Below are positions 32,505 to 33,578 of a DNA stretch of 64,000 bases, piece after piece; position 1 is the first letter of the stretch; every line of letters starts with the position of its first letter. This DNA comes from a virus (taxonomy: Duplodnaviria; Caudoviricetes). Both the position numbers and the translations under genes were made by a program. The stretch lies in IMG/VR virus record IMGVR_UViG_3300025398_000635, positions 9,666-73,665 of that record, one strand, 5' to 3'. The notes under the pieces are model-generated. The model was not told the origin of the DNA. It saw nothing but the letters and a program-made list of their open reading frames with translations, and did no database searches.

Positions 32505-32862
32505 CTATTTTGGGTGACAAGGTATAACTACCTCGCAAGTGCAGTTTCTTAGGCTGCTAGTGCAAATGCGTCGTCGTTAAGAGCGACATCAACTTGCATG
32601 TACTTGAATGTATTTGCTTTTGCATTTACGATATTTGCTTGATTTACAGTCATCGCCTACTCTGTTGCCTCTTTCGCTATCTCACCATGTCGAAACCTTG
32701 TCATCCCCATCATAAAGATACATATCGCATAGTTTATAAAACAGGCTATGCCCCACATATACTGCCAGTGCCAGTTTTCAAACATACTATATCCTTATGG
32801 TGGAGATGCCGGGAATCGAACCCGGGTCCACAGTGCCTTCACTACGAAGGAATTACAACAAT
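32505..32862 (-). ncRNA. ssrA: Circularly permuted (two-piece) tmRNA
   Basis: Acceptor piece with T arm ending CATCTCCACCA at 32798 precedes the 5' end GGGGATG at 32708; G3:U70; 89-nt intervening segment; outer ends approximate. Confidence 0.92.
32549..32623 (-). CDS. tmRNA tag AKANTFKYMQVDVALNDDAFALAA (24 aa)
   Basis: Resume codon GCA after GTAAAT; ALAA-stop degron. Confidence 0.8.
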   Translation of the reverse strand, partial: AKANTFKYMQVDVALNDDAFALAA

Positions 32863-32865
32863 TCT

Positions 32866-32940
32866 TTACTTACGCTTTTTCAACGTTCTGCGGGCAGTTG
32901 CCTTAACAGATCGTGAATGATGCGCACGAAACTTTGCCAT
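32866..32940 (-). CDS. Basic micro-protein MAKFRAHHSRSVKATARRTLKKRK (24 aa)
   Basis: Hand-called; TAATG-coupled. Confidence 0.65.
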   Translation of the reverse strand: MAKFRAHHSRSVKATARRTLKKRK

Positions 32941-33041
32941 TACTTACGTTTGGCACCACGACTTGCCATAGTTTTTAAACTTTTAGCTCGTGGTGGTTTT
33001 TTACCTTTTAAAATCTGACTTACTCTACGTGGACTGGGCAT
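32940..33041 (-). CDS. Basic micro-protein MPSPRRVSQILKGKKPPRAKSLKTMASRGAKRK (33 aa)
   Basis: Hand-called; TAATG-coupled at both ends. Confidence 0.65.
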   Translation of the reverse strand: MPSPRRVSQILKGKKPPRAKSLKTMASRGAKRK

Positions 33042-33112
33042 TATCTGCTCCTTGCTTTACGAACTGCTCGCATTGCACGTGCCCGCATAGTTTTTGGTTT
33101 TCCTCTTGCCAT
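33041..33112 (-). CDS. Basic micro-protein MARGKPKTMRARAMRAVRKARSR (23 aa)
   Basis: Hand-called; AGGAGAGG RBS. Confidence 0.7.
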   Translation of the reverse strand: MARGKPKTMRARAMRAVRKARSR

Positions 33113-33296
33113 TTTGCCTCTCCTTTAAAAGTCAACCCAATCCTTAAGCTCTATAAGGGCATATACTATTATTGCCGCAAAGATCATTAAGGCTATCATT
33201 AACATAATGTATTTATTATAGCATCTTTTAATTTAGATAGCAATGATTTTGAGTAATAGTAGCATAAATACTTGTACAACCGGGAGCGAATCGGAA

Positions 33297-33578
33297 ATGG
33301 GCGAAATTTTCAAAATTATCGGGGATCTAGGATTCCCTGTCGCGGCTGCAATGGCTGGCGGCTATTTTGTTTTCTTAACTATCAAACTACTTTTGGGCGG
33401 AGTTTTAGGCTCAGTAAAAGGCATGGCTGGTATTATCACAGCACTTGATAATCGTGTAAAAACCATGAATCACGATGTAATACGTATCGATACAGTAGTA
33501 TCAAACGCACTTGGACTACGTCCAGATGTAGATCGTATTGCTCGTGCAGATGGTAAGAACGATGCAAGGAGAGACTGA
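33297..33578 (+). CDS. Small membrane protein, YvrJ/holin-like
   Basis: GFP.AA motif, one TM helix plus coiled tail; late box CATAAATA at 33263-33270. Confidence 0.55.
   Translation: MGEIFKIIGDLGFPVAAAMAGGYFVFLTIKLLLGGVLGSVKGMAGIITALDNRVKTMNHDVIRIDTVVSNALGLRPDVDRIARADGKNDARRD

Follow-up and report, generated by a model that had tools for sequence, protein, structure and literature searches.

Conserved micro-ORFs encoding basic peptides upstream of a permuted tmRNA gene in freshwater jumbo phages

The smallest ribosomal proteins (bS22, bTHX, bL34, bL35, bL36, and eL41) are approximately 25–45 aa long, extremely rich in lysine and arginine, and encoded beside translation genes. The phage micro-proteins considered here are similar to them in all these respects, and the similarity may extend to the helical or extended mode of rRNA binding that would be expected of such sequences. 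They differ in that they match no family model and are found only in phages, with patchy occurrence and variable copy number. Arginine-rich-motif peptides (N of phages lambda and P22, Tat and Rev of HIV), protamine, and the adenovirus mu peptide are also short and basic, some of them helical, and bind nucleic acids largely by charge; compared to these, the micro-proteins are richer in lysine and alanine and have conserved non-basic positions.

Another close parallel is provided by ribosome rescue factors. The positively charged tails of SmpB and ArfB lack structure in solution and adopt a helical form within the mRNA channel (PMC8012679). Similarly to the C-terminal tails of SmpB, ArfA, and ArfB, the micro-proteins are positively charged, helical by prediction (at least ORF2), and linked to tmRNA by gene context. 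However, the tails belong to larger proteins with a body domain, whereas the micro-proteins stand alone, and no sequence similarity between them has been found.

The translation genes of large phages, as listed in a passage of PMC7162821 that cites Mizuno et al. (2019), include those for S21, S1, L7/L12, IF1, IF3, tmRNA, and SmpB, and basic RNA-binding extensions of phage-encoded ribosomal proteins have been proposed to redirect host ribosomes (PMC7162821). All these genes have recognisable cellular homologues, whereas the micro-proteins have no cellular counterpart among 1.84 billion representative proteins. Two-piece phage tmRNAs located behind early promoters have also been described, e.g., in the aquatic T4-like OM43 phage Melnitz (PMC9004378). 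For Melnitz, a glutamine riboswitch is reported and no micro-ORF leader is mentioned (PMC9004378), whereas in the locus studied here a coding cassette lies between the promoter and the tmRNA.

Structure of the micro-ORF–tmRNA unit

The studied window is a stretch of 64,000 nt from a 73.6-kb IMG/VR viral contig (IMGVR_UViG_3300025398_000635), for which CheckV estimates completeness of approximately 20%. As related contigs are 353–356 kb long and 96–100% complete (G001–G003), the contig is a fragment of a freshwater jumbo phage genome. It carries 24 tRNA genes and the tmRNA gene, all on the minus strand (ARAGORN). The features of the unit are listed in Table 1.

Table 1. Features of the probable transcription unit containing the micro-ORFs and the tmRNA, in the order of presumed transcription (window coordinates)
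Feature	Position	Strand	Details
Sigma70-like promoter, TTGCTA-17-TG-TATAAT	33243-33215	-	10/12; putative, from sequence only
Hydrophobic micro-ORF, 26 aa	33205-33125	-	First gene of the unit; mean hydrophobicity +0.66
ORF1, basic micro-protein, 23 aa	33112-33041	-	10 K+R, 0 D/E; strong SD
ORF2, basic micro-protein, 33 aa, MPSPRRVSQILKGKKPP family (T2)	33041-32940	-	12 K+R, 0 D/E
ORF3, basic micro-protein, 24 aa, MAKF/W-x-AHH-x-RS-x-KATARR family (T3)	32940-32866	-	10 K+R, 0 D/E
Two-piece tmRNA, circularly permuted: acceptor piece first, then intervening segment and coding piece	32860-32549	-	RF04321, 130.9 bits
Intrinsic terminator	32502-32483	-	GC-rich 8-pair stem, then T run

The sequence-only reading of this region had described three ORFs of 23, 33, and 24 aa, the first one with a strong SD, chained by TAATG overlaps, lacking acidic residues, and ending a few nucleotides from the tmRNA, and all of this is borne out on the minus strand. 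At both junctions, ORF1/ORF2 and ORF2/ORF3, one A is common to the stop and the start, none of the three peptides contains D or E, and 5 nt separate the stop codon of ORF3 (32868-32866) from the beginning of the Rfam permuted-tmRNA match. The SD of ORF1, AGGAGAGG, lies 5 nt upstream of the start, and that of ORF2, AAGGAG, lies within ORF1. No clear SD precedes ORF3, so its start must depend on translational coupling. Lysine and arginine constitute 36–43% of the three basic peptides, whose mean hydrophobicity is from -0.47 to -0.68, which makes membrane activity of these peptides unlikely. A search of the entire 73.6-kb contig shows that ORF1–ORF3 are the only copies of such ORFs.

The ATG of the hydrophobic 26-aa ORF is approximately 3 nt from the predicted transcription start, making it near-leaderless; in relatives, longer versions of the MFKY..ELKDW type occupy this position. 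Hydrophobic micro-ORFs of two families, 22–36 aa in length, travel with the basic ones (window 33125-33205 (-); L003, L014, L073; L006, L011, L199, L213, L366). The MFKY..ELKDW type comes first behind the promoter, and the MK[AT]YQFIV...LIHVFM type is the final ORF before the tmRNA in several relatives. A divergently transcribed gene of 111 aa (33243-33578 (+)) has no Pfam match and encodes a product with a hydrophobic central segment. The gene is highly conserved: at least 590 stretches confirmed by tblastn correspond to it, and identity across the 80 loci kept is 75–94%.

The tmRNA scores 130.9 bits with RF04321 (gathering threshold 47) and 114.2 bits with RF01850 (gathering threshold 84), and hence belongs to the permuted tmRNA class. 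ARAGORN also predicts a permuted tmRNA, at 32890-32458, with a tag of 24 residues, and this prediction overlaps ORF3 by 25 nt. The tags of these phage tmRNAs are long, 22–31 residues (e.g., AKANTFKYMQVDVALNDDAFALAA, window 32549-32623 (-)), and vary widely among close relatives, some of which have short tags of the ANDExFALAA type. The terminator is the only terminator-like site on the minus strand from the promoter to that point, and between the ORFs and the tmRNA in the window we observe neither promoter-like nor terminator-like sites.

Families of micro-proteins and their conservation

Relatives were collected via both flanking genes and then with degenerate DNA patterns for the ORF1, ORF2, and ORF3 peptides; a scan with a DNA pattern for RARAMRAVR yielded mostly off-frame matches in GC-rich contigs, which were dropped. 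Homologous micro-ORFs are common in related contigs. The ORF2 type, MPSPRRVSQILKGKKPP..., is represented by 26 distinct peptides (alignment A1), the ORF3 type, MAKF/W-x-AHH-x-RS-x-KATARR-x-LKKRK, by 13 distinct peptides, and the ORF1 type comprises MAQGKPKTQRARAMRAVRKARSK and its variants. Several more types (MAYRAK..., MSRKKPTPME..., ...GWRA..., and MARRSDRAK...) are present in relatives and absent from the window. As far as searched, the orthologous groups of ORF1, ORF2, and ORF3 are confined to one clade of uncultured freshwater jumbo phages.

Substitution patterns were analyzed frame by frame. Orthologues of ORF1 in three loci (L351, L358, L366), located directly upstream of the tmRNA, are identical to it in 20 of 23 residues, with 8–9 synonymous and 3 nonsynonymous codon differences. 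For ORF2, dN/dS is 0.07–0.08 overall, compared to 0.125 in the portion that the search pattern leaves free, and for ORF3 it equals 0.063 (24 distinct nucleotide sequences of equal length; 25 in all, 13 peptides). Across the families, the in-frame values are 0.35–0.76 for pS, 0.03–0.27 for pN, and 0.06–0.23 for dN/dS. In the two shifted sense frames dN/dS is 0.6–6, and the three antisense frames contain stops in most relatives or have pN/pS >1. As the search patterns fix some amino acids by construction, the selection test was repeated on unconstrained codons only, yielding pN/pS of 0.13–0.48 and Jukes–Cantor dN/dS of 0.07–0.13 where defined.

Moreover, the start codon is ATG in all 82 distinct ORFs of these families, and 60 of them (73%) have an SD core (GGAG, GAGG, or AGGA at -18 to -4), compared to 7.6% for any ATG. 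The gaps between neighbouring ORFs are from -1 to +3 nt in 25 pairs out of 31. To judge by these patterns, the three ORFs are almost certainly genuine protein-coding genes. Since their orthologues are under purifying selection and the contig contains no other such ORFs, the arrangement is beyond chance. In the sequence-only reading, a lack of ORF conservation in relatives was named among the refuting observations; this conservation is in fact strong, and the arrangement of coupled micro-ORFs running into the tmRNA recurs there.

In a leave-one-out HMM analysis of the short types, ORF3 scores 35.7 bits, a value matched by none of 1000 shuffles, and ORF1 and ORF2 score -2.8 and -7.5 bits, respectively, no better than shuffles. 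A single paralogous family uniting ORF1, ORF2, and ORF3 was rejected on this ground, as no significant profile similarity is observed. A C-terminal motif [ST]-h-[KR]-A-x-A-[KR]-R-x-h-K-K, noticed on visual inspection of the alignments, lacks statistical support. The three ORFs are handled here as three orthologous groups, to which this motif is possibly common.

Searches in sequence, fold, and structure databases place these peptides apart from described families. In Pfam, NCBIfam, and PHROGs, no ribosomal family is matched at E up to 10 (35 members), and the matches obtained, HTH_3 at E 0.077 and scattered single ones, are not meaningful. A profile search against all PDB chains, SmpB, ArfA, ArfB, and BrfA included, yields no ribosomal or rescue chain at E up to 10; its sole matches are designed helical repeats with the TTVEEAVKRALK unit, indicating little beyond helix-like sequence. 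No match to ORF2 and ORF3 is found by tblastn in 50,697 GenBank phages, to which the low-complexity filter may contribute, the ESM Atlas contains only unnamed clusters under 0.9, and Foldseek finds no match to the AF2 model in the PDB. Among 1.84 billion representative proteins, the ORF2-type profile has six matches, all from the same family, environmental, and annotated as ‘hypothetical’. The AF2 model of ORF2, built on the 26-sequence alignment, predicts two helices, at residues 4–12 and 22–32, with a GKKPP loop between them (mean pLDDT 87.6).

One ORF in a relative begins with MPKIKSVR, which we take to resemble the N-terminus of bL35. Identity with bL35 was rejected, as an HMM built from 93 distinct proteins (120 rpmI loci) assigns on average 1.69 bits to the peptides and 1.72 bits to shuffles. 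More generally, the likeness to bS22, bTHX, or eL41 and the partial mimicry of the SmpB tail, both suggested from composition before any searches, do not translate into any relation by sequence or fold in these searches, be it to the named ribosomal proteins, to bL34, bL35, and bL36, or to SmpB and the Arf factors.

Genomic context and transcription of the cassettes

Forty-two distinct cassettes were found by peptide pattern alone, independently of tmRNA, and 30 of them are assessable. The tmRNA is located downstream on the same strand within 120 nt in nine of these 30 cassettes and within 1.5 kb in five more (14/30, 47%), compared to the chance expectation estimated at approximately 0.2% for a 350-kb genome with one tmRNA, and in the remaining 16 no tmRNA is present within 1.5 kb. 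The link between the cassettes and tmRNA is strong, not obligate. The cassettes contain from one to four or more micro-ORFs, and the order of these varies.

The ORF1, ORF2, and ORF3 types are also found directly before iscU-iscA (PF01592, PF01521), often overlapping the iscU start (L168, L179, L193, L197-L218, L364). As the same peptide types are encoded away from tmRNA, e.g., before iscU, they are not dedicated tmRNA partners. In two of these loci (L168, L193) the cassette follows a gene for an Hc1 histone-H1-like protein (PF07432, E 6.5e-18), and many iscU-iscA loci with micro-ORFs have a gene for a His-rich secreted protein of 101 aa upstream. Single genes of the ORF2 type precede those for a GDSL hydrolase, a pilin-like protein, and others. 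The slot just upstream of the tmRNA is often occupied by a CSD cold-shock gene of 67 aa (PF00313, E 6.6e-29), alone or together with micro-ORFs (L006, L011, L073, L111, L138, L143, L165, L166, L177, L181, L358). In one of the loci (L011, 1106-1738) a 210-aa ORF starting with MFYTVYKTTNLINGKIYVG, by eye a GIY-YIG homing-endonuclease-like insertion, lies between the cassette and the tmRNA.

In five related genomes (83–100% complete) neither profile has a significant match, with one weak row at E 0.097, in a search of uncertain sensitivity for such short queries; this suggests that the function is dispensable. Overall, the micro-ORFs appear to be tiny accessory genes that form a mobile set and prefer the tmRNA leader markedly, though not exclusively.

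The unit is headed at the same position by a consensus or near-consensus TTGACA-17-TATAAT promoter in 18 out of 37 distinct relatives. In three loci, L049/L052/L083 (IMGVR_UViG_3300000439_001808, 3300020731_000714), the promoter is placed directly on the tmRNA 5' end (TATAAT, 7 nt, TTGTTGTAAT) with no ORFs, and given this layout the micro-ORF cassette elsewhere looks inserted into the leader. In relatives with adjacent cassettes, the last ORF stops 0–12 nt before the conserved (A)GAATTGTTGTA element, which forms the 5' side of the first helix of the tmRNA. This terminal ORF may be of any of five types (ORF3, ORF2, ORF1, TPME type, and hydrophobic), and with five unrelated coding sequences abutting the tmRNA there is little room for a conserved internal promoter.

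Contigs from three lake metatranscriptome runs join the tmRNA of a relative to 195–255 upstream letters, of which the first 30, reverse-complemented, encode ...MASRGAKRR, a C-terminus of the T2 type. These contigs hint at co-transcription, with the reservation that DNA carry-over is possible and a contig is not proof of a single transcript. At window-like identity, metatranscriptome contigs cover parts of the tmRNA and not the ORFs of the window; the runs hold relatives, not this phage. Taking the layout of promoter, ORFs, tmRNA, and terminator as a guide, co-transcription of the ORFs with the tmRNA is quite probable, and the transcript is presumably early, given the sigma70-type promoter.

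The sequence AGAAUU is conserved directly after the last stop, both in the window (32861-32866 (-)) and in relatives. We take it to resemble the RNase E preference RN↓WUU, and it is thus a candidate site for the release of the tmRNA acceptor piece. The leader folds with z = -2.16 relative to shuffles (a single sequence), and synonymous sites are saturated in relatives. Finally, SmpB (PF01668, E up to 0.001) is not found in three relatives that are 96–100% complete and have tmRNA (G001–G003), with controls detected. As tmRNA is present and SmpB is not found, the phage tmRNA presumably relies on SmpB of the host.

Possible roles of the peptides

We estimate the probability that the basic peptides bind RNA or the ribosome and have a role in translation as about one half. 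RNA binding is suggested by their composition, predicted helical shape, and gene context. The proposed mechanism is as follows. One early transcript would start at the sigma70-like promoter, cover the 26-aa hydrophobic ORF, ORF1, ORF2, ORF3, and the two-piece tmRNA, and end at the terminator. Ribosomes would load at the SD sites of ORF1 and ORF2 and then cross the TAATG overlaps from ORF to ORF, and a ribosome terminating at the last ORF would cover the strand of the first tmRNA helix. As the last stop abuts the tmRNA 5' element, the acceptor piece would have to be excised from the mRNA, that is, the tmRNA would be cut out of a translated message.

The peptides themselves would act in trans on RNA of the translation apparatus (the ribosome, tmRNA, or tRNA), favouring phage translation early in infection. 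Such a role is suggested by their composition, the predicted helices, the early-type promoter, and the neighbours (tmRNA, cold-shock protein, tRNA). The binding would be comparable to that of the tiniest ribosomal proteins and of the basic tails found in rescue factors, and ribosome-directed proteins of large phages, with their basic RNA-binding extensions, provide a precedent (PMC7162821). Since the tmRNA would depend on the host SmpB, action of the peptides at the rescue step is attractive, although neither sequence similarity nor domain logic supports it. In a bolder variant, free-standing peptides of 20–35 residues would insert into host ribosomes, with the mRNA channel, the decoding centre, and an rRNA groove as conceivable sites. 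By redirecting rescue or translation, they would give a phage with tmRNA and without SmpB control over trans-translation; we consider this variant rather unlikely.

A different possibility is that the peptides serve as protamine-like counter-ions on phage or host DNA, either as part of the content of the jumbo capsid or as agents that compact or silence the nucleoid of the host. The high content of lysine and arginine (36–43%) with no acidic residues would fit such a role, the Hc1 histone-H1-like gene preceding the cassette in L168 and L193 agrees equally well with DNA binding, and the copy number varies as if dosage mattered. However, the host sigma70-type promoter common to the peptides and the tmRNA suggests early rather than late (virion) expression, the apparent absence from relatives that are 83–100% complete argues against a core packaging role, and the cassettes strongly favour the vicinity of RNA-related genes (tmRNA, csp, tRNA). 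The idea of protamine-like virion peptides, which had been one of the initial suggestions for this locus, is weakened by the promoter type and by the patchy presence among relatives, and we regard DNA binding as unlikely.

The peptides might also enter stalled ribosomes and occupy the vacant mRNA channel or the decoding region, similarly to the tails of SmpB, ArfA, and ArfB, and thereby tune rescue, either aiding the phage tmRNA with the host SmpB or blocking rescue in the host. This would agree with their being encoded together with tmRNA while three relatives, 96–100% complete, show no SmpB, and with the basic character of the peptides and the predicted helices of ORF2. Moreover, a synthetic SmpB-tail peptide has been reported to inhibit A-site binding of tmRNA–SmpB (PMC8012679). 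On the other hand, the profile search of the PDB, which covers the rescue factors, yields nothing at E up to 10, the peptides have 23–33 aa and no further body domain that could recruit a release factor or hold tmRNA, and the same peptide types are found before iscU and elsewhere. Together these points make a channel-binding function quite unlikely.

Another explanation assigns to the ORFs a role in cis, where their translation, proceeding as far as the tmRNA 5' element, would determine how the precursor folds, how it is processed, or how stable it is, and thus couple tmRNA output to ribosome availability. In favour of it, the stop is located 0–12 nt before the first-helix strand in every adjacent case, irrespective of which of the five terminal ORF types is present, and a terminating ribosome would cover this strand. 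However, a pure act-of-translation device does not need strong purifying selection on the peptide sequence, the same peptides are encoded where no tmRNA is present, neither a terminator nor an alternative hairpin separates the ORFs from the tmRNA, and the leader has only a modest folding advantage over shuffles (z = -2.16). Nor do the ORFs resemble those of attenuator leader peptides, which can vary rather freely in sequence and whose ORFs overlap alternative terminator/antiterminator hairpins before the regulated gene: the peptides here are conserved (dN/dS 0.06–0.2), a terminator-like site is lacking, and the ORFs also occur at unrelated sites. A function in cis by itself seems doubtful to about the same degree as channel binding; cis and trans roles could coexist.

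Many small early phage proteins serve host take-over or defence evasion, and the micro-proteins could similarly be inhibitors or toxins directed against a host protein or the envelope, with the tmRNA adjacency being incidental. The cassettes are accessory and variable both in number and in position, a pattern typical of genes of this kind, and small hydrophobic peptides are encoded together with the basic ones. The basic peptides are very hydrophilic, however, so they are unlikely to act on membranes directly, and their 47% association with tmRNA greatly exceeds the chance level. In addition, inhibitors that bind specific proteins are not usually very short and purely basic; we consider this explanation distinctly improbable. 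Lastly, chance open frames in an untranslated tmRNA leader with no protein made, which would agree with the ORFs being short, of low complexity, and not present in the family databases searched, are hardly credible in view of the frame-specific purifying selection, synonymous sites close to saturation, ATG starts throughout, SD sites enriched tenfold, and stops in alternative frames.

Phage tmRNAs and small basic proteins as a class are already known. What appears to be new, according to our comparative data, is the peptide families with no homologues outside this phage clade in the databases searched, purifying selection demonstrable at 21–35 codons, and the recurrent placement of the ORFs as a probable translated leader fused to the tmRNA precursor. 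ORFs of 21–25 codons escape gene callers; here at least six sequence types, probably more, represent genes that are conserved within an abundant lake phage group, and these micro-genes sit inside what would be annotated as the leader of an RNA gene. Whatever the function of the peptides, a hybrid mRNA–tmRNA precursor poses the question of how the acceptor piece of a two-piece tmRNA is released from a translated mRNA.

If ribosomes or tmRNA are indeed bound by the peptides, the phage take-over of translation, which already involves tRNAs, tmRNA, S21, and S1, would gain a layer that is purely viral. In this case, the micro-proteins would also be minimal natural peptides for probing ribosome rescue, a process discussed as an antibiotic target (PMC8012679). 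Insertion into the ribosome, if true, would mean a new class of virus-encoded ribosome-binding micro-proteins, along with a new route to tmRNA, which would derive from the 3'-terminal part of an mRNA.
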